The translations under genes were made by a program, and so were the position numbers. A DNA stretch of 64,000 nt from a virus, in IMG/VR virus record IMGVR_UViG_3300032893_000735, positions 32,001 to 96,000 of that record. One strand, given 5' to 3'. This document shows, one piece after another, positions 1 to 27,780 of this stretch; positions within the stretch are counted from its first letter, which is position 1, and each line of letters starts with the position of its first letter. The notes below the pieces were generated by a model. That model saw nothing but the letters and a program-made list of their open reading frames with translations, did no database searches and had not been told where the DNA came from.

Positions 1-269
1 ATGTAAGGGAGTAGATTTCGAACAATGTCTCGACTGGACGTATACCAAGCATATTTTTGCTTTCGATTACCTTCTGTGGGTAATTTTCTCCACATGCCCC
101 CAAACACCTGTACTAACCACTTCATAAGTGGCCTGTGGGAGTTGTAGACGTAAAGGGTGAATTGGTGCCCAGTTCCCTCTACTGATCGTATGCAAAAACT
201 GCCGTCTCCGTCAATGAGACCCGCCAAATATGCCCATCTCTTTGGGCTGATTTTATCTTTATCCCTCAA
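1..269 (-). CDS. LAGLIDADG homing endonuclease inside group I intron 3 (runs off the left edge)
   Basis: TTG start at 269 after a GGAGG RBS; translation RDKDKISPKRWAYLAGLIDGDGSFCI... stays open to the window edge. Confidence 0.9.
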   Translation of the reverse strand, partial: MRDKDKISPKRWAYLAGLIDGDGSFCIRSVEGTGHQFTLYVYNSHRPLMKWLVQVFGGMWRKLPTEGNRKQKYAWYTSSRDIVRNLLPY

Positions 270-366
270 GGAATTTTCCTCCGTCTTGTCTAGTCCTGCC
301 GCCAGATATTAACGGATTTGACCGAGTTTAAGGACCGCAAGTGGTTTGTTTCCAATAACATGCGGC
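1..366 (-). mobile_element. Group I intron 3 of the major capsid gene (5' part only)
   Basis: Exon 3 ends GGGACCGU, which pairs with intron GCGGUCCU (P1, U.G at the splice site); the exon frame soon hits TAA; the intron contains a LAGLIDADG ORF. Confidence 0.75.
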
Positions 367-1003
367 ACGGTCCCTTCCGCGGCCTGATTCAAATTGGCCG
401 CCAGAAGTGCGTAGGTATAGACAGTTTGTTTTTGGTTGACCGCATCTCTGCGGACTCGCTCTCATGGTTTCCCAAGAGTTCAGGCTGTGTCTTCAGTCCA
501 TTCTGGACTGCCCGGCATGTCAGTCGTTCGGGAGCCTATTTCTAGGTTTCCTCGGCGTTGCCCTGTTCATTTATCATACTATCACGCCTGATAGTACGCG
601 TCAACAGGGTTTTCGTCGATATAGTCGGGTTTGAATTCAGCGCTTTACCACTGAATCTGGTTGCCCTGCCGAAGCGGGAGCGGACGTTGCTTTGTCATGC
701 TCAAGAACGGCGTCTGGGCTTTGAGGTTAGGGACTGCTTCGCGTTCATCAATGTGTTTTGGGTACTAGCATCTCTGCTAGTTCGCTCTGCATATTCCTAT
801 GCAGTTCAGGCCGTGTCTTCAGTCCATTTTTCGGACTGTCTGGCGTCTCGGTCGTTACGGAGCCTATTTCTAGGTTTCCTCGAAGTTGCCCGGTCTGGGC
901 CTCCTTCGATATAGCCAGATTTGAATTCACCAAGATTTTAGTGAATAGCTACCAAGTTCGGAAGCGCCCCGGATGTAACAATTGATGCAGGAGAGTAACT
1001 CAT
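367..1003 (-). CDS. Major capsid protein, N4-gp56-like (exons 1003-940, 748-650, 421-367; continues beyond the window)
   Basis: Spliced frame reads MSYSPASIVTSGALPNLVAIHYEREAVPNLKAQTPFLSMTKQRPLPLRQGNQIQFYTYALLAANLNQAAEGTV, resembling N4-gp56-family capsid N-termini; lies directly after the scaffold-like gene. Confidence 0.8.
422..649 (-). mobile_element. ORF-less group I intron 2 (228 nt)
   Basis: P1 AUUCAGU/GCUGAAU with U.G wobble; terminal G at 422; R/S-like elements AACGACUGA and GAAGACACAGCCUG; removal restores the frame (T|TC = Phe). Confidence 0.85.
576..604 (-). promoter_or_regulatory. sigma70-like promoter inside intron 2
   Basis: TTGACG-17 bp-TAGTAT with TG extended -10. Confidence 0.55.
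749..939 (-). mobile_element. ORF-less group I intron 1 (191 nt)
   Basis: P1 AUUCACU/GGUGAAU with U.G wobble; P3 UCUGGC/GCCAGA; terminal G at 749; clearly homologous to intron 2; removal restores the frame (T|AT = Tyr). Confidence 0.85.
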
Positions 1004-3550: not shown

Positions 3551-6500
3551 TTACAGAAGACTACCAAAACCTACTCCGCTAGTGTTCGGTGATCCAGTTA
3601 GTTCTTCTGGTTCGACTGCTCTCTTAAAGGATTCTCTCAACACGTCACGACTCGCACGGGCTATGTTCTCCTGGTCAGCCAACTCCTGCGCTTGCTGGAA
3701 CTTCTGTTGTTGCAACTGTGCTTGAGCTTGTGCCTGCGCTTGTATCTTCTGGTTCATCTGACCACCCTGCGACTGGGCCTGCTGACGGGCCAAATCTTGC
3801 GGGGTCATGTCAGTAATTATGTCGGACATACTCTTGCATTCCGCTGCTTCGAACCAGAGATGGAGAAGTTCAGTAACATCTATTTTCTTACCTTCAAGAG
3901 CCAGAGAGGATATGATTTCCGGATTGGCCAGCGTTTGCGAGAGCATCGGAAGGGCCTGATTCAGGTTTCTCCGAGTTTGCATTTTCGACCCAGCTAGGAT
4001 GTCAAACTTAACTTTCGCGTTCAGAATATCAACAAGATCCCCGCCGTTCTCAACATACTCATGTTTCAGTTCCTCGCTCATGATGAACTGGAGTTGAGAA
4101 AGTGGGAGCATCATTCGGTTCATTTCAGCCATATCATAAAGAAACGGCACAATAATCTGATTCGCCAGCTTGTCCACGCATTCGGAAATCACGTTGGACG
4201 CGCCCTGAGTCAGCGCCTGCGCCCCAGCGGAACTACGGGCCATATTGGAATGTCCGCTGGCCCCCGCGATACCCTGGGAGGTAATCGAGTTGTTCCCCGA
4301 CACTTCGCCCACCCTAGCTTGCGACTGAGTGAACAAATAACTGGCTTCTTGGACAGGCTCCCCGAACTTGAGCGGTTCCAGATCGCCCTTAGCGTCTACT
4401 TCAATAATCCGATTCGGACCAATTCGGATACTCTGCGTCGGTACCGACTTACCGCGAACCCGAAGCATCGGAGCGTTCAGCTTCAGGTTTGCGATGTTCA
4501 TAACCAGATTCGTGATGCCAGTTTGGACACGCTGTTCGGTTCCGATCGTGTTATGGGTGAGAATGCAGTCGTCAGTTACATACAGATGGTCAGGAGAATC
4601 GACCATGATGCACTGACACTGTTTCTGAGATACTAACTCTACTGACTTGATGAAGCGGGCCGGAAGATACTTTGTTCTAGGTACGTGCTTCTCCACTTTC
4701 CTAGTCAATCGGAAAGGATTAAAGGTAACACCTATAGTCAGAATAAACTGTCTGTCAGCAGGTTTTGCGAGACCTGTGTAATTCTTTTCCCAACCTTCTT
4801 TCCATCTCTTGGTGACGACAGTTACAGAACCTCCCAAAGACTGAACCAGAAATTTCACGTCATCCCGAAGTCTTTCTGAAGTTGTATAGAACTGACAGGC
4901 ACCGTTGCTCAGCGCAGAACCGTCTGTATCCATCAGACCAGCAAGAATTGCTTTTCTTTGAGCGACAGATCCGAACTTGTAGACATCGGGAATAAACTTG
5001 TAACGTGATGTGCAATTTACTCCGAGGTCACGAGTAACCCTACGGATTACATTACACTTTCCATCAAGAGAAGTAAACTTATAGTCATATTGACTTTGCG
5101 GAATTTTAGTGATCTTGGTATTTTCGGGCAGGACTTCGTTAATCCGATCTATGAGTTCTGGATCGGCAGTAGTAAATTTGGGAGTTTCGGTAGTCATACC
5201 CCCGTCGCCAAGAAGGAGCCCCATCAGGTACGGATCAAGAGGCTGTACCTTCTCTTCAAATTCTACTGGAGAAACTATAGGTATCCTGTACCGGCATTGG
5301 TGGTGGCCAGATTTTGCTTTTAAATCTCCCCAAATCTCCTGAAGTTCCAGAGTTCTAGTTTTCCACCCACGCTTCTGTTTGATTTTTGTCTTGGTTTGTA
5401 CTGTCCACAAATGTTCTTTGCAGCACTCAGTAGAAGAGCCGTCCGAAAAATGGACACGATAAACATCTTTCTCGCCTTGCGGATATATCCCAGTAACACA
5501 GTATGGCTTTCCATCAGAACCGATAACCTTGGTTCCAACTTCAACTTCTCCCATTGTAGTCCAACCATCTGGGGTCAAAATCTTAGCGTCAAGAGGCTGG
5601 GAGCGACCGAGCCCCAAACTCCAAAAACTTTGCGGAGAATCCCACCACCCAATCGAGTAAAACGGGATCTTGCCGTAGATATTCTTGTCGTTGTAAATTA
5701 CAAGTTTCTTCTGGAGGACTACGATGTACGTGTTGTTATCCCACCGTTCGAGGACTTCAAGCGGCTGCTGGAAAGGATCGATGGTCGTCTTTTCCCACGG
5801 AGAATCTGCCCGAGCGTCCCAAAGAGGATTACGCCCGCCTTCTTGCTGAGGGTTTGATTCGACAGGTTCTACAGGGGGGAGGAACAATTCAAGGAGTTTT
5901 TCACGTGACGGGATGTTGTAGCCTTCCCGTTCGCGGAGTCTGTCCAGGTCTTCCCAAGTCATGTACCGGCGGCGGATAACATACTTCGCTTTTCGAATAT
6001 CAGGAACGTCCAGACCGGGATCGACCAAGATTTCTCGCAGATTGACGATATGCTCGAATGTGGGCCTGTCTACGACCTCTTCTATTTCTTCGACTTCTAA
6101 TTCGTCATCCGTGATACTTGTAGCAGGCGCTCCGGGGATTGAACTGGGGATTACGATAGGAGGATTCTTGCGCTTGATGATTTTACGGGTACGAGTAAAT
6201 TTTTCCCATCCGGCTTGGAAGATGGCCGTGCCGAACAGCAGCATGTTCATGGTTCCCAGACGGATCTCTTCGCGGAAATTTATATCTTCTAATTGGTATC
6301 CGAGAAGTGCGGAAACGGCTCGGGCAGCTTGCGCCGAAGTTCCGCTTCGTTCTTGCGTCATAAAAGGAGGGTTCTCATAAAACAAACCGGCAAGAACTTG
6401 AGGGGTAAGACCGTTTACCGCAGTTGCAACCGTGTAGAAGTTTACAGAGGCCGCTTCCATCTGGGTTCCGGGCCAAAAATTCGGAGTCATGACCGCGTTG

Positions 6501-6697
6501 TAGAGGTCGCGGGCATTGTTCCAACCCATTAAATACTCGCGACGACGTTCTCCGCTGTCGGCCTTTTCCGCGTCCTGTAGTACAAGTTTTAGCGGAGCTG
6601 AATCAGACGAAGCCCAGGATTGATCGTTAAGAAACGAGAGCGCCTCTTCTTTTGTGAGGTCTTGGTAAGCGTTAACCTCTGGCTGATTTAGTATCAT
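3551..6697 (-). CDS. Portal protein containing an intein
   Basis: Portal-like features (LLFGTAIF, ILVDPG...KAKYVIRR, Gln-rich C-terminus); located between terminase and scaffold. Confidence 0.8.
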   Translation of the reverse strand: MILNQPEVNAYQDLTKEEALSFLNDQSWASSDSAPLKLVLQDAEKADSGERRREYLMGWNNARDLYNAVMTPNFWPGTQMEAASVNFYTVATAVNGLTPQVLAGLFYENPPFMTQERSGTSAQAARAVSALLGYQLEDINFREEIRLGTMNMLLFGTAIFQAGWEKFTRTRKIIKRKNPPIVIPSSIPGAPATSITDDELEVEEIEEVVDRPTFEHIVNLREILVDPGLDVPDIRKAKYVIRRRYMTWEDLDRLREREGYNIPSREKLLELFLPPVEPVESNPQQEGGRNPLWDARADSPWEKTTIDPFQQPLEVLERWDNNTYIVVLQKKLVIYNDKNIYGKIPFYSIGWWDSPQSFWSLGLGRSQPLDAKILTPDGWTTMGEVEVGTKVIGSDGKPYCVTGIYPQGEKDVYRVHFSDGSSTECCKEHLWTVQTKTKIKQKRGWKTRTLELQEIWGDLKAKSGHHQCRYRIPIVSPVEFEEKVQPLDPYLMGLLLGDGGMTTETPKFTTADPELIDRINEVLPENTKITKIPQSQYDYKFTSLDGKCNVIRRVTRDLGVNCTSRYKFIPDVYKFGSVAQRKAILAGLMDTDGSALSNGACQFYTTSERLRDDVKFLVQSLGGSVTVVTKRWKEGWEKNYTGLAKPADRQFILTIGVTFNPFRLTRKVEKHVPRTKYLPARFIKSVELVSQKQCQCIMVDSPDHLYVTDDCILTHNTIGTEQRVQTGITNLVMNIANLKLNAPMLRVRGKSVPTQSIRIGPNRIIEVDAKGDLEPLKFGEPVQEASYLFTQSQARVGEVSGNNSITSQGIAGASGHSNMARSSAGAQALTQGASNVISECVDKLANQIIVPFLYDMAEMNRMMLPLSQLQFIMSEELKHEYVENGGDLVDILNAKVKFDILAGSKMQTRRNLNQALPMLSQTLANPEIISSLALEGKKIDVTELLHLWFEAAECKSMSDIITDMTPQDLARQQAQSQGGQMNQKIQAQAQAQAQLQQQKFQQAQELADQENIARASRDVLRESFKRAVEPEELTGSPNTSGVGFGSLL
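4550..5602 (-). mobile_element. Intein (351 aa) with LAGLIDADG endonuclease, in the portal
   Basis: N-terminus SQPLDAKILTPDGW; endonuclease blocks LMGLLLGDG and LAGLMDTDG; C-terminus ILTHN followed by Thr. Confidence 0.92.
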
Positions 6698-19467: not shown

Positions 19468-19549
19468 TGGAGCGGAAGACGAGATTCGAACTCGCATGTC
19501 TAAGACGGTTGCTTGGAAGGCAACGGCTCTACCACTGAGCGACTTCCGC
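19468..19549 (-). tRNA. tRNA-Gly(TCC), extended variable arm
   Basis: Cloverleaf, encoded CCA, loop CTTCCAA. Confidence 0.85.
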
Positions 19550-19554
19550 GAACT

Positions 19555-19632
19555 TGGTCCCCGAAGACGGACTTGAACCGCCCACCTAGCGGTTATCGAC
19601 CGCTTGCTCTTGTCAAGATGAGCTATTCGGGG
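19555..19632 (-). tRNA. tRNA-Ile(GAT)
   Basis: Loop TCGATAA, CCA. Confidence 0.8.
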
Positions 19633-19633
19633 A

Positions 19634-19707
19634 TGGTGCCGAATAAGAGATTCGAACTCCTGTCTTCTGGGTGTAGACCAGAGGCCCTGCCTTTAGGCGA
19701 ACTCGGC
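19634..19707 (-). tRNA. tRNA-Val(TAC)
   Basis: Loop TCTACAC, CCA. Confidence 0.75.
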
Positions 19708-19712
19708 AAAAC

Positions 19713-19787
19713 TGGTGATCGCAGACAGAATCAAACTGTCATATCAGGCTTCGGAGACCTGCGCTCTGTTCTTTGAGCTATGCGACC
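19713..19787 (-). tRNA. tRNA-Arg(CCG)
   Basis: Loop CTCCGAA, CCA. Confidence 0.8.
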
Positions 19788-19791
19788 AAAC

Positions 19792-19867
19792 TGGAGATCC
19801 CGCCGAGACTCAAACTCGGGTCTGAAGTTTAGGAAACTACTGCTCTATTCTCCTGAGCTACGGGACC
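19792..19867 (-). tRNA. tRNA-Arg(CCT)
   Basis: Loop TTCCTAA, CCA. Confidence 0.8.
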
Positions 19868-19873
19868 GAAACT

Positions 19874-19949
19874 TGGAACTCCTGGAGGGAGTCGAACCCC
19901 CGACCTAGACTTTAGAAAAATCCCGCTCTTCCGTCTGAGCTACAGGAGC
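19874..19949 (-). tRNA. tRNA-Arg(TCT)
   Basis: Loop TTTCTAA, CCA. Confidence 0.85.
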
Positions 19950-19953
19950 AAAC

Positions 19954-20028
19954 TGGTAGACCGCCAGAGACTCGAACTCTGTCCAAGACGCGGTAAAAGC
20001 ACGTTATGCACCCTCACACTCACGGTCC
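19954..20028 (-). tRNA. tRNA-Lys(TTT)
   Basis: Loop CTTTTAC, CCA. Confidence 0.7.
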
Positions 20029-20034
20029 AAAACT

Positions 20035-20110
20035 TGGTGCGTCCAGAGGGAAACGATCCCCCGACCTTCTCATTAAGAGTGAGTTGCTCTACCAACTGAG
20101 CTATGGACGC
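20035..20110 (-). tRNA. tRNA-Lys(CTT)
   Basis: Loop CTCTTAA, CCA. Confidence 0.85.
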
Positions 20111-20111
20111 A

Positions 20112-20204
20112 TGGTAGGCGATGAGTGAGTTGAACACTCCCGTTGCGCTAATCTGGCGCTTTCCCGAGTCTATAAGTCTCAGCCGCACACCGATGCTATC
20201 GCCC
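20112..20204 (-). tRNA. Atypical tRNA with TAT anticodon (Ile?) and a long variable arm
   Basis: Loop CTTATAG, GCGC..GCGC variable stem, CCA. Confidence 0.65.
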
Positions 20205-20211
20205 GTAAACT

Positions 20212-20282
20212 TGGTGCCAAAGCGGGGAATCAAACCCCTCATTCCGCTTTATGAGGGCAGATGCCGAATCATCGGCCTTGGC
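20212..20282 (-). tRNA. tRNA with CAT anticodon (Met/Ile2)
   Basis: Loop CTCATAA, short D arm, CCA. Confidence 0.65.
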
Positions 20283-20287
20283 AAAAC

Positions 20288-20362
20288 TGGCGGGAGATGT
20301 AGGATTTTAACCCACAAGTTCCGGGTTGGAGCCGGACAGTTTGACATTGAGCTTAATCTCCC
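20288..20362 (-). tRNA. tRNA-Trp(CCA)
   Basis: Loop CTCCAAC, CCA. Confidence 0.75.
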
Positions 20363-20363
20363 G

Positions 20364-20438
20364 TGGAACCCGGTAGCGGAGTTCAACCGCTGTTTCGAAG
20401 TTCGTAGCTTCGCGCCTTATGCGTTAGACGAACCGGGC
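20364..20438 (-). tRNA. tRNA-Arg(ACG)
   Basis: Loop CTACGAA, CCA. Confidence 0.8.
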
Positions 20439-20447
20439 ATTTTAAAA

Positions 20448-20521
20448 TGGTCGGGGTAGAGGTAATCGAAACCTCGTCTTATGATCCCAAATCATAGGCT
20501 TGACCTTCCAGCTATACCCCG
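20448..20521 (-). tRNA. tRNA-Pro(TGG)
   Basis: Loop TTTGGGA, CCA. Confidence 0.85.
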
Positions 20522-20522
20522 A

Positions 20523-20598
20523 TGGTGGGCAGTCGCAGAATCGAACTGCGCCGTGAGGCTTTTCAGACCTCCGTTCCAACCATGCAAACTCACTACCC
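20523..20598 (-). tRNA. tRNA-Phe(GAA)
   Basis: Loop CTGAAAA, CCA. Confidence 0.8.
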
Positions 20599-20710
20599 AA
20601 AACTTATTCGGTTTTATCTGCATCATCATTCTCGGGCATATAAGAGGTTAGTCAAGCTAACGTAGGATGCTTGCAATGGCAGAGCGGGAAACCGAAAAAC
20701 ACCTTTGTAT

Positions 20711-20786
20711 TGGTGGAGCATGTCGGATCTGCCCCGACTGCCTCCGCGTTGCAGGCGCGGCGCTCTCCTAATTGAGCTAATGCCCC
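20711..20786 (-). tRNA. tRNA-Ala(TGC)
   Basis: GGGGC acceptor with G3.U70, loop CCTGCAA, CCA. Confidence 0.85.
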
Positions 20787-21325
20787 TACTCGGGGTGCCT
20801 CCATTTGTAAGGCCCGTCCCGATTATTATAGTGGTCCAAATCATGACAATTAGGGCATAAGAGTTCCAAATTGTCTATCGTATTATTTGTTCGATCTCTA
20901 TCCTTATGGTGAACTTGCAAAATTTCCGGATGAAGATCATACCCACATCTGTTACAAATCTTATCGTAAGTTCGAAGTGCTATCGCTCTGTAGCTGTATC
21001 TTCCATCGCCATAATGACTTGGTCTGAGAATTTCATTATGCTTTCCCATTCTTTGGGCGTCATCTTTGCAGATTCTAGAACAAAATCGGAGTCCGCTCTT
21101 CGATTTCTTGAGATTAGATTGACTTCTGTAAAAGATCAACCCACAGTTGTCACACTTTAGTTCATGTATTTTAGACGGATTGGATGCTCGGAAACATTCA
21201 GGGCTACAGTATCTCCTACCTGCATGTTTTGGGGCATAGAAACTTTTTCCGCAAAAAGTACAGAACTGCAAAAACAACTTACGCTGCTTTCCATCATAGA
21301 TAGTTGAAACAATTACCTCTTCCAC
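20786..21325 (-). CDS. HNH endonuclease with N-terminal Zn-binding repeats, inserted in the tRNA array
   Basis: LQVHHKDRDRTNN...NLELLCPNCH; GTG start after AGAGGA. Confidence 0.85.
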   Translation of the reverse strand: MEEVIVSTIYDGKQRKLFLQFCTFCGKSFYAPKHAGRRYCSPECFRASNPSKIHELKCDNCGLIFYRSQSNLKKSKSGLRFCSRICKDDAQRMGKHNEILRPSHYGDGRYSYRAIALRTYDKICNRCGYDLHPEILQVHHKDRDRTNNTIDNLELLCPNCHDLDHYNNRDGPYKWRHPE

Positions 21326-21440
21326 GTTTAGTCCTCTTCTGGGGGCGGGACCTACGCGAATCATCAATCCACCACCTGTAGAATTTCTATGCTACAGGAC
21401 ATTTACCACGCTTGAGTTTAGCATCCTCAAACACTTATTT

Positions 21441-21520
21441 TGGGGTGGCCGGAGGAAGTTGAATCCTCAAGAAGCAAATTCCACAGACTTGTCCGACATA
21501 CCCGTAGTCGGCACGGCCAC
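21441..21520 (-). tRNA. tRNA-His(GTG)
   Basis: Loop CTGTGGA, C73 discriminator, CCA. Confidence 0.8.
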
Positions 21521-21547
21521 ACTTGTTGTCCATTATCTGGACGAAAC

Positions 21548-21629
21548 TGGAGCCTAGTGAGGGACTCGAACCCTCGCGTTGGAATGGCAGTTTACAAAAC
21601 TGCTGCTGTCGCCGCTGAGCCAACTAGGC
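21548..21629 (-). tRNA. tRNA-Thr(TGT)
   Basis: Loop TTTGTAA, CCA. Confidence 0.8.
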
Positions 21630-21675
21630 ATTTCACGTCCGCACTTAGGGAGGCGGAACTCCAACTTACAAAGAA

Positions 21676-21704
21676 ATACTACCACAACATTTCTTAATTG
21701 TCAA
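21676..21704 (-). promoter_or_regulatory. Internal sigma70 promoter of the tRNA array
   Basis: TTGACA-17-TAGTAT with TG extension. Confidence 0.75.
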
Positions 21705-21712
21705 GCGAAATC

Positions 21713-21787
21713 TGGAGCCGAATAGCGGCCTCAAACCGCTGTCTCATGCGTACCAAGCATGTGCTCTTTCTGTTGAGCTAATTCGGC
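21713..21787 (-). tRNA. tRNA-Thr(GGT)
   Basis: Loop TTGGTAC, CCA. Confidence 0.8.
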
Positions 21788-21788
21788 T

Positions 21789-21862
21789 TGGAGCCCAATT
21801 GGGGAATTCAACCCCAGTCTTCTCTGTACGAAGGAGATGTACTGGCACTGTACTAATCGGGC
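21789..21862 (-). tRNA. tRNA-Thr(CGT)
   Basis: Loop TTCGTAC, CCA. Confidence 0.75.
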
Positions 21863-21868
21863 ATTAGT

Positions 21869-21943
21869 TGGCTCCGCCGCGAGGTTACGATCCCCGTTTC
21901 CCGAGTTCAAAGCCCGGTGCCTTACCGATTAGACGACGGCGGA
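21869..21943 (-). tRNA. tRNA-Gln(TTG)
   Basis: Loop CTTTGAA, CCA. Confidence 0.8.
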
Positions 21944-21949
21944 ATAACT

Positions 21950-22028
21950 TGGGGAGGTAGACGGGAATTGAACCCGCGTAACACGGTGTGAAAGACCGTG
22001 GACAAAAACCAGCGTTGTCGGCTACCTC
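21950..22028 (-). tRNA. tRNA-Glu(TTC)
   Basis: Loop CTTTCAC, CCA. Confidence 0.75.
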
Positions 22029-22045
22029 AAACTTTTTATCTAAAA

Positions 22046-22132
22046 TGGCGGAAGTCGGAGGTAACGATCCCCCATCCCTTTCGGGAGCCACGGTTTTCAA
22101 AACCGTTTGTCTCACCATCGACGGCGACTTCC
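22046..22132 (-). tRNA. tRNA-Ser(TGA)
   Basis: Loop TTTGAAA, long variable arm, GCCA end. Confidence 0.85.
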
Positions 22133-22136
22133 AAAC

Positions 22137-22224
22137 TGGCGGTTGGTTGAGAAATCGAATCCCCGTGCCTTACGACACTCCGACTGCTTTCGAAACAGTT
22201 TGCGAACCTTTCGCGGAACCAACC
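22137..22224 (-). tRNA. tRNA-Ser(CGA)
   Basis: Loop TTCGAAA, long variable arm, GCCA end. Confidence 0.8.
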
Positions 22225-22374
22225 TTAAACTAATTCGCGGAGAGAATTTCGGCGTCAGTACAATGTTTCTTTCGCTGGGCAGTTTCTCTCTGCCTCGGAT
22301 CGGGTTCTAGACCCCGTTAGCTAGTACCTGAAAAGCATCCCTCGTCTGCACACGACCTATTTCTAGCGCGAAAC

Positions 22375-22460
22375 TGGCGGAAAGCACAGGAGTTTAACCT
22401 GATACCTTTCAGTACGCATCCGCTTCCAACGGAGCCTCGGAACGTCCGAGTTTACTTTCC
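22375..22460 (-). tRNA. tRNA-Ser(GGA)
   Basis: Loop TTGGAAG, long variable arm, GCCA end. Confidence 0.75.
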
Positions 22461-22461
22461 A

Positions 22462-22550
22462 TGGCGGAGAAGGTGGGTGCTGACCCCACGCGGCTCTTTC
22501 AAGTCCACTGGTTTAGCAAACCAGCCCGTTTACCGTTCCGGCACTTCTCC
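22462..22550 (-). tRNA. tRNA-Ser(GCT)
   Basis: Loop TTGCTAA, long variable arm, GCCA end. Confidence 0.8.
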
Positions 22551-22558
22551 GTAAAACT

Positions 22559-22625
22559 TGGTTGAGAACGTGTGCTCTGGTCGGGTTGATTAAGCACGTT
22601 TACCGCAGCCGACCAGCGTTCTCAA
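22559..22625 (-). ncRNA. CCA-ended hairpin RNA of unknown class
   Basis: UUGAGAACG/CGUUCUCAA stem plus CCA; inner stem CUGGUCGG/CCGACCAG; occupies a tRNA slot. Confidence 0.55.
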
Positions 22626-22628
22626 ACT

Positions 22629-22706
22629 TGGTGCGGATGGTCGGATTTGAGCCGACAGACCGAAAGGTTTGAGCTTTCGAGGTATTCCAATTCCCATCAC
22701 ATCCGC
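22629..22706 (-). tRNA. tRNA-Leu(CAA), short variable loop
   Basis: Loop CTCAAAC, CCA. Confidence 0.75.
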
Positions 22707-22711
22707 AAACT

Positions 22712-22793
22712 TGGTACCCGCAGAGGGACTTGAACCCCCACCCCTAGAGAATGCATCCTAAGTGCATCGTGTCTGCCATTCCACCATGCGGGC
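22712..22793 (-). tRNA. tRNA-Leu(TAG)
   Basis: Loop CTTAGGA, CCA. Confidence 0.85.
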
Positions 22794-22803
22794 AAAATTA
22801 AAC

Positions 22804-22890
22804 TGGTACTCGGGAAGGGACTCGAACCCTCATCCCCTTTCGAGGATTAGCACCTCAAGCTAACGCGGCTTCCAATTTCGCCACCCGAGT
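22804..22890 (-). tRNA. tRNA-Leu(GAG)
   Basis: Loop TTGAGGT, long variable arm, CCA. Confidence 0.85.
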
Positions 22891-22965
22891 AAAACTTTGT
22901 CGGATTTGTCCAGGCGGGGTCCGACTGGCCTCGATACGTTTAAAGTGGTGTTTGTCATCCACTAA

Positions 22966-23040
22966 TGGAGTACCGTGCTGGACTTCAACCAGCTAAAGAG
23001 GTTTTGCAGACCTCTGATTCGAGCCTTTATCTTACGGTAC
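22966..23040 (-). tRNA. tRNA-Cys(GCA)
   Basis: Loop CTGCAAA, U73, CCA. Confidence 0.75.
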
Positions 23041-23041
23041 A

Positions 23042-23117
23042 TGGTAGGCGGCCCGAGATTCGAACTCGGATATCAACGATCTTAAATCGTTTGCCTTTGC
23101 CGTTAGGCTAGCCGCCC
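23042..23117 (-). tRNA. tRNA-Leu(TAA), short variable loop
   Basis: Loop TTTAAGA, CCA. Confidence 0.8.
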
Positions 23118-27720: not shown

Positions 27721-27780
27721 CGCAGAGTGGCCGTCCGGAAAATGGACGGTTAATGCGGCGGTCCCGTCACAAGCCGGGAC
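27721..27780 (+). ncRNA. Twister ribozyme, circularly permuted (P1 closed by a hairpin)
   Basis: CGCAGAGUG...UUAAUGCGGC...GUCCCGUCACAAGCCGGGAC; P2 UGCG/CGCA; pseudoknot CAC/GUG; predicted cut U27751/A27752. Confidence 0.75.

Follow-up and report, generated by a model that had tools for sequence, protein, structure and literature searches.

That phage genes can contain group I introns is textbook knowledge. Three such introns are said to have been described in orf142 of Staphylococcus phage Twort by Landthaler and Shub in 1999. Among published systems, the capsid gene of crAss-like Zeta/Delta phages is broken by four insertions into five fragments, and a load of as many as 14 introns in a genome was called unprecedented (PMC7886860). 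The jumbo gut (Jug) phages carry on average 18.5 group I introns of ~206 nucleotides (nt) per genome of 360-402 kilobases (kb), partly validated by metatranscriptomes (PMC12880540). Two group I introns within the gene for ribonucleotide reductase of Twort are cited in PMC3984707, introns in capsid and tail genes are mentioned for cluster J mycobacteriophages in Pope et al. 2013 (PMC3706429), and the group I intron in the tRNA-Ile gene of Azoarcus sp. BH72 measures 205 nt and belongs to subgroup IC3 (PMC3895272). Here we analyze a 64,000-nt stretch of DNA of a wetland phage (hereafter the window), bases 32001-96000 of the 105,825-base IMG/VR record IMGVR_UViG_3300032893_000735, which is estimated to be 98% complete. 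Window positions 1-1003 very probably hold the 5′ end of a single major capsid gene of the HK97 fold, distantly N4-gp56-like, with three group I introns of one family (family A) in its first 73 codons. Our literature search found no paper on this phage clade or on a phage gene with nine or ten introns; the highest number that it found was three or four per gene.

The capsid gene runs on the minus strand, as do all of its parts given below, and is cut by the window start; upstream DNA was added (L003, genome 20001-34000), into which the rest of the gene continues. A tblastn search of the genome with P0001, an uninterrupted relative protein, showed that the gene lies in many pieces. Exon 1 (940-1003, 64 nt) begins with ATG at 1003-1001, ends with a final U at 940 and matches P0001 residues 1-21. 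Exon 2 (650-748, 99 nt, final U at 650) matches residues 23-55, and exon 3 (367-421, 55 nt, final U at 367) residues 56-73. Once joined, the three keep the reading frame, as an earlier note on this DNA had proposed, and give 72 codons with 2 nt left over; all coordinates of the note hold and its junctions CACT|ATGA and CAGT|TCTA are correct. The same note had counted at least three introns, and these three are present, but the figure is a large understatement. The whole gene consists of ten exons of 64, 99, 55, 45, 481, 47, 34, 67, 16 and 76 nt (stop included), separated by nine intervening sequences of, in order, 191, 228, 1057, 202, 234, 227, 229, 46 and 229 nt. The joined coding sequence (CDS) of 981 nt encodes 327 amino acids and is 96% identical to P0001 at the protein level with zero gaps.

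To place the junctions, homology to uninterrupted relatives was combined with the requirement of a final U in each exon and a final G in each intron (the U/G rule). At these homology-fixed junctions, nine of nine 5′ exons finish in T and nine of nine intervening sequences in G. The junction at site 163 (sites are given as CDS positions) is unambiguous, and the one at site 64 is ambiguous by 1 nt and was settled by the U/G rule. The same ten exons were recovered by an independent custom spliced aligner; this aligner favours U...G junctions, so that the near-universal U/G rule seen among ~200 introns of related loci is partly built in. DNA contigs of two other wetland samples, covering short parts, contained no clean intron-less joint for sites 64, 163 and 218.

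A search with the largest upstream open frame returned at least 120 proteins of ~327 amino acids, several of them named N4-gp56 family major capsid protein by the Joint Genome Institute (JGI), with P0001 as the best match. Many of the database homologues of this capsid protein are truncated fragments, which bears out the expectation of the earlier note that the gene would be hidden from gene callers. P0001 matches TIGR04387 (N4-gp56 major capsid) over residues 12-198 with 39.9 bits (E = 3e-10) and does not reach the equivalog cut-off of 60; by its sequence the protein is a distant relative of the N4-gp56 family, not an equivalog. The AlphaFold2 (AF2) model of P0001, whose predicted local distance difference test (pLDDT) score is 59.5 overall, has a confident core, with scores of 70-87 for the greater part of residues 130-260, and a helix formed by residues 109-141. 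In a Foldseek search with this model the best solved match is the capsid of phage N4 (E = 6e-9), followed by Moo19, DEV and cyanophage capsids. These matches support a predicted HK97 fold for the product of the spliced gene, via its 96%-identical homologue. No family was found with Pfam and PHROGs for a 144-residue piece of exon 5 or with Pfam for P0001, and a profile of 30 capsid homologues gave no match among PDB sequences, so that capsid relatives were found by fold search only. In the nearest isolate, Tunturiibacter phage Tunturi_3, the gene is free of interruptions and annotated as 'major head protein', and its product is 38% identical. This nearest cultured relative infects an acidobacterium, and the host of the present phage is on this ground probably an acidobacterium as well.

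Codon comparisons show that the joined frame is under purifying selection. Uninterrupted relatives of ~79% DNA identity differ from it by 155-162 synonymous and 10-19 non-synonymous codons, and within codons 1-73 uninterrupted homologues show 37-41 synonymous and 0-1 non-synonymous differences. The gene is single-copy, with no other capsid homologue found in the genome.

Intron 1 (749-939, 191 nt) is a group I intron without an open reading frame (ORF) and without P2, as delineated by the Rfam model RF00028, its minimum free energy (MFE) fold and covariation within the family. Its internal guide GGUGAAU (925-931) is complementary to the 7 nt that end exon 1, ATTCACU, and the U.G wobble falls at the splice site. 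Read by hand, P1 has 7 base pairs (bp) including U.G, P3 six (919-914/844-839), P4 six (909-904/885-880), P5 four (900-897/891-888), P7 five (853-849/813-809), P8 four (836-833/825-822), P9 six (804-799/792-787) and P9.1 five (780-776/769-765). P6/P6a (879-859) is capped by a GAAA loop, and a 16-nt A-rich tail leads up to the terminal G at 749. Intron 2 (422-649, 228 nt, terminal G at 422), likewise ORF-less, combines an intron 1-like core with an extended P5/P5a hairpin (609-561), which accounts for essentially all of its 37 nt of extra length. Its guide GCUGAAU (635-641) matches the 7 nt at the end of exon 2, AUUCAGU, in the same manner, again with a U.G pair at the splice site. Apart from the guide region, introns 1 and 2 share 75% identity, and intron 2 is alignable with introns 1 and 4. 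Unconstrained MFE folding recovered P1, P3, P4, P5, P6a, P8, P9 and P9.1 of intron 1 (z = -6.1 versus shuffles) and likewise those of intron 2 (z = -4.2).

A separate observation concerns the P8 hairpins of introns 1 and 2 (836-822 and about 509-497), which are made up of near-copies of the 15-bp palindrome GTCCA-N5-TGGAC; the hairpins in the 3′ tails of introns 7 and 9 are near-copies as well. Perfect copies of the palindrome occur 23 times in the window versus 0.03 expected, for example at 1724, 8202, 15605, 31583 and 62649.

The 5′ third of intron 3 occupies window positions 1-366; the intron measures 1057 nt in all, continues for 691 nt more to genome position 31310 and ends in a terminal G. 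The window part holds P1, the 5′ strand of P3, P4 and P5, followed by an endonuclease ORF set into P6. Membership in family A is indicated by both ends, which can be aligned with introns 1, 2 and 4, by an nhmmer family A match to the 3′ core and by a partial RF00028 match at the 3′ end. The guide GCGGUCC (332-338) pairs with the last 7 nt of exon 3, GGACCGU, with U.G at the splice site, and in orthologues of this intron an exon G-to-A change is offset by a C-to-U change in the guide. The ORF, whose N-terminal part lies at 1-269, starts with TTG at 269-267 after a GGAGG motif and encodes 316 amino acids in all. It matches Pfam PF00961 (LAGLIDADG_1) in two stretches with 45.5 bits versus a cut-off of 23.1, and both LAGLIDADG domains lie in one stop-free frame of 329 codons. 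The ORF reads through P7, P3′, P8, P9 and P9.1 to a UAA stop in the conserved tail, which leaves 9 nt to the 3′ splice site. Every family A intron with an endonuclease gene places its stop in this way, with the UAA in the tail motif ~10 nt ahead of the 3′ splice site (L003:11310-11330 and the family tails), and in the ORF-less introns 1 and 2 the tail UAA is mutated.

The earlier note had reported U.G-closed P1 helices at all three 5′ splice sites, a terminal G in introns 1 and 2, the nature of these two as ORF-less paralogs with the same core and their own guides, and a LAGLIDADG gene in intron 3, and it was right on each of these points. An intein reading of the interruptions is ruled out, because the lengths of introns 1 and 3 are not multiples of three, intron 2 has an in-frame stop in its second codon (UGG UAA) and intron 3 a stop after 18 codons.

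The assignment to group I is supported by matches of introns 1 and 2 to RF00028 that are significant, though below the curated cut-off, by the folds given above and by strong compensatory covariation. For the last of these, 25 distinct family A introns without an ORF were taken from this phage and its relatives and aligned, and the structure of intron 1 was imposed on all of them. Paired bases fill 87% of the cells; with slid partners the share is 32-39%. Of the 42 pairs, 30 have changed on each of their two sides. Pairing reaches 98% in P3, 96% in P4, 97% in P9, 92% in P9.1 and 86% in P7. The 5-bp P7 has an invariant G-C at its first position, the expected site of the G-binding pair, and also one invariant C-G pair. 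At the 5′ splice sites, introns 1, 2 and 3 each form a P1 of 7-8 contiguous pairs beginning with U.G. A guide pairs with its own exon over a mean of 5.9 contiguous bp versus 3.2 bp with exons of other sites, and between orthologous introns exon and guide change together at sites 64, 106, 218 and 263. These data support the view that the interruptions represent group I introns of one family, with the guide of each fitted to its own exon.

From this architecture we infer the splicing chemistry. Each intron would pick its own 5′ exon via its 7-8 nt guide, with the U.G wobble marking the cut, and excision would presumably follow the standard two-step, guanosine-initiated transesterification and finish at the terminal G. 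All nine intervening sequences would have to leave the transcript before the 327-residue coat protein can be encoded.

A scan of viral contigs yielded 45 related loci, in which introns were mapped with the custom spliced aligner. They contain ~200 intervening sequences at ~38 positions of the 981-nt CDS, with 0-10 per gene: nine here and in L046, ten in L032 and L033, and none in L006, L017, L034 and L035. By nhmmer, introns 1-4 of the present gene form family A, introns 5 and 7 family B, and introns 6 and 9 family C. Family A introns lack P2 and comprise P1, P3-P9 and P9.1; their ORF-less members measure 167-232 nt, including members of 167-181 nt in relatives. Introns of families B and C are found at ~18 sites, which lie within the gene's 3′ half, and have no ORF in any of the 45 loci, and all endonuclease-bearing introns belong to family A. 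Within the 105.8-kb genome all nhmmer and Rfam matches lie inside the capsid gene, as do 249 of the 251 matches in related loci, and an E-value-based Rfam scan of the whole 64-kb window found no group I intron beyond this gene. The distribution of the matches supports the view that the intron family has multiplied within one gene.

Among relatives, each of the sites 64, 163 and 218 is found empty, with a ~200-nt intron or with a ~1-kb intron. Introns at site 64, the site of intron 1, measure 178-232 or 966-972 nt, those at site 163, the site of intron 2, 201-228 or 981-999 nt. The long introns all carry ORFs of one LAGLIDADG family, and these ORFs fall into site-specific clades with long stems and support of at least 99%. 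With intron-less alleles in existence and endonuclease clades that track the insertion site, the ORF of intron 3 is a predicted homing endonuclease. At the level of the population the introns behave as mobile elements, whose empty, ORF-less and endonuclease-bearing states probably represent a homing gain-and-loss cycle.

Unlike the endonucleases, the ribozyme cores do not track sites. In a tree of the cores, intron 2 groups with intron 1 and the site-64 intron of L038, and a second mixed clade joins the site-64 intron of L027 with the site-163 introns of L004, L007 and L020. The guide module of intron 2 (its first 34 aligned positions) is identical at 33 of 34 positions to the site-163 orthologue of L030, whereas its P6-P9.1 region is 75% identical to intron 1 versus 53% to L030. 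Judged from these identities, intron 2 is a mosaic, in which a site-specific guide is joined to an intron-1-type core. Endonucleases would then persist as site-specific lineages, and cores would be swapped between sites while the guide stays with its site.

Several points weigh against reading the locus as a working capsid gene with self-splicing group I introns. The covariance model RF00028, which the earlier note had named as a check, detects intron 1 with 44.5 bits (E = 8e-10) and intron 2 with 34.7 bits (E = 7e-7), both below the curated cut-off of 50 bits, and gives no match on introns 6 and 9 of the gene; among the other siblings intron 7 scores 61 bits (above 50), intron 4 43 and intron 5 37. 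The Rfam alignment of the introns starts ~48 nt too early and ends ~38 nt too early. Its 5′ end is forced into the exon because the model expects P2, which family A lacks, and the model leaves out the extra P9.1 hairpin and the tail of the family. The second P7 pair, adjoining the invariant G-C, is an A.C mismatch in both intron 1 and intron 2, and intron 2 has additional A.C mismatches in P3 and P4, so that unaided self-splicing is not assured. On inspection of the sequence, P10 pairing of intron 1 with its 3′ exon is weak or absent. Interruption 8 (46 nt; L003:9698-9743 = genome 29698-29743, outside the window) has a perfect 8-bp P1-type helix with U.G and a final G and contains no catalytic core, so that the gene cannot rely only on autonomous cis-splicing. 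Among the sequencing runs listed as containing the capsid sequence, none is an RNA run, so that no spliced junction has been seen. The mismatches, the model scores below the cut-off and the core-less interruption, which must depend on something else, would fit introns that are group I in architecture and not autonomous, with introns 1 and 2 in need of a protein helper: either the LAGLIDADG protein of intron 3, serving every family A core as its maturase, or an RNA chaperone of the host. The very reduced periphery, with no P2 and only 4 bp in P5 and P8, points the same way, as does the fact that exactly one LAGLIDADG gene is kept intact in the capsid gene, and LAGLIDADG maturases are established for mitochondrial group I introns, e.g., the bI3 maturase (PMC2813881). 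However, across family A the second P7 pair is A-U, G.U or A.C in turn, as for a tolerated wobble-type pair, some relatives have ORF-less family A introns and no LAGLIDADG intron in the locus (e.g., L041, with short introns only), and the Azoarcus intron of similar size self-splices unaided (PMC3895272). A dependence of introns 1 and 2 on a helper seems unlikely to us. Far less probable still, to the point of being nearly negligible, is that the interrupted gene is dead, either as a decaying capsid pseudogene of a defective phage or as a mis-assembly or chimera of metagenome reads, with the introns as inert insertions. In favour of this reading, the record is a metagenome assembly, no RNA run is listed for the sequence and one interruption has no ribozyme. 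A dead gene would leave unexplained why the comparison with uninterrupted relatives shows 155 synonymous versus 10 non-synonymous codon differences with no frame or stop defect once the exons are joined, why the sole capsid gene of a nearly complete genome should be lost, why dozens of contigs, independent of one another and drawn from different samples, share these insertion sites, and why covariation maintains the helices. A Logan contig from a second assembler (5424 nt, depth 43) also runs from exon 1 through intron 4 with zero differences, although it probably stems from the same reads as the record and is then not independent.

While the multiplication of the family within one gene, which the earlier note had claimed, agrees with the matches given above, the retargeting that it claimed looks modular: a guide module of site 163 is combined with an intron-1-type core, and the endonucleases are faithful to their sites. 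The likeness of introns 1 and 2 may accordingly reflect core exchange between long-resident, site-specific introns, by DNA recombination or gene conversion within the genome or between co-infecting phages, with guides kept matched by selection and no retargeted jump. We consider the chances of this account to be evenly balanced. The mosaic build of intron 2 and the mixing of cores between sites 64 and 163 in two clades, next to endonuclease genes sorted strictly by site, are what it would lead one to expect, and a search of the phage genome for a reverse transcriptase (PF00078), which reverse splicing needs, found none. On the other side, the target heptamers AUUCACU (intron 1) and AUUCAGU (intron 2) are one base apart and the likeness ends at the splice site, which is a prediction of guide-directed reverse splicing into a near-cognate RNA site; moreover, a host reverse transcriptase could serve, and the two routes are not exclusive. 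For reverse splicing as a route to new group I sites, published support is circumstantial only (PMC3984707). Because intron 2 is a mosaic, cores mix between sites and no reverse transcriptase is encoded, a core swap by recombination appears somewhat more likely than a jump by reverse splicing. A broader proposal, which we hold to be doubtful though a little less so than the helper requirement, is that ORF-less cores spread without homing endonucleases among dozens of sites of one gene, via guide-directed reverse splicing into near-cognate sites or via core swap behind a resident guide. If this were true, the capsid gene would document the retargeting of group I introns in nature more clearly than any other case. 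The intron array might also be kept for a benefit to the phage, such as the timing of capsid production or the shielding of its most conserved gene from rival endonucleases.

The core-less interruption 8 is followed downstream by the 16-nt exon and then by a complete intron. Pieces of 40-59 nt occupy its site in 16 related loci, and a second site for such mini-introns, after CDS position 89, holds 52 nt in L042-L044. Translational bypass was considered for the 46-nt piece and set aside, given its perfect P1-type helix and terminal G.

Other elements lie near the capsid gene or elsewhere in the window. The capsid stop codon is followed, ~150 nt further downstream, by a free-standing HNH/endonuclease VII-like gene on the minus strand (L003:8700-9230 = genome 28700-29230; PHROG 3322, E = 6e-35). 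Its product could act in trans on the ORF-less introns, as in collaborative homing. A CyVA-1 RNA motif on the minus strand (L003:7950-8027) scores 39.6 bits, just below the cut-off of 41.4. The portal gene (Pfam SU10_portal; window 3551-6697, minus strand, 1048 amino acids) is interrupted at ~residues 380-640 by an intein-like insert, in which Hint and LAGLIDADG_3 domains were recognised. A type-P5 twister ribozyme is found on the plus strand at window 27721-27778 (57.3 bits versus a cut-off of 37.6), and an array of ~20 tRNA genes spans window 19471-23117 on the minus strand.

As a resource for folding and engineering, the locus and its relatives offer ribozymes of 167-230 nt that are minimal by nature and come in many guide variants, and they allow the gain of a new target by a group I intron to be studied in natural sequences. 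In this phage clade of soils and wetlands the capsid gene is overlooked or cut short by gene callers, which affects virus classification that uses the capsid as a marker.

Compared with described systems, the array is a known kind of element at extreme density. Introns in capsid genes are shared with the cluster J mycobacteriophages, for which the abstract of PMC3706429 gives no sign of many insertion sites. With the Azoarcus intron, introns 1 and 2 share the design of a minimal ~200-nt group I ribozyme without large peripheral domains. That intron possesses P2 and is inserted in the anticodon loop of a tRNA, whereas in family A P2 is missing, a P9.1 hairpin and a tail of 16 nt are present, the interrupted gene encodes a protein and the lengths run from 167 to 232 nt. 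The earlier note had called intron 1 minimal, and at 191 nt it is indeed shorter than the 205 nt of Azoarcus, but it sets no record, with 167-181 nt in relatives and an average of ~206 nt in Jug phages. Twort resembles the present phage in having related group I introns in tandem within one ORF, with short exons between them; two or three introns are involved there and their self-splicing was shown, whereas here nine interruptions are found and splicing is predicted from sequence. The Jug phages likewise have very small ORF-less group I introns in essential genes, together with homing endonucleases of several families. Their introns are spread over many genes, in contrast to the single gene of a 106-kb genome described here, with exons down to 16 nt and known from DNA alone. 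In crAss-like phages, as here, several group I introns interrupt the major capsid gene of uncultured phages, some of them carry endonuclease genes, and gene callers are defeated. In contrast to those phages, nine interruptions are packed here into one CDS of 981 nt, three of them within 218 nt, and all group I introns found in the genome sit in this one gene.

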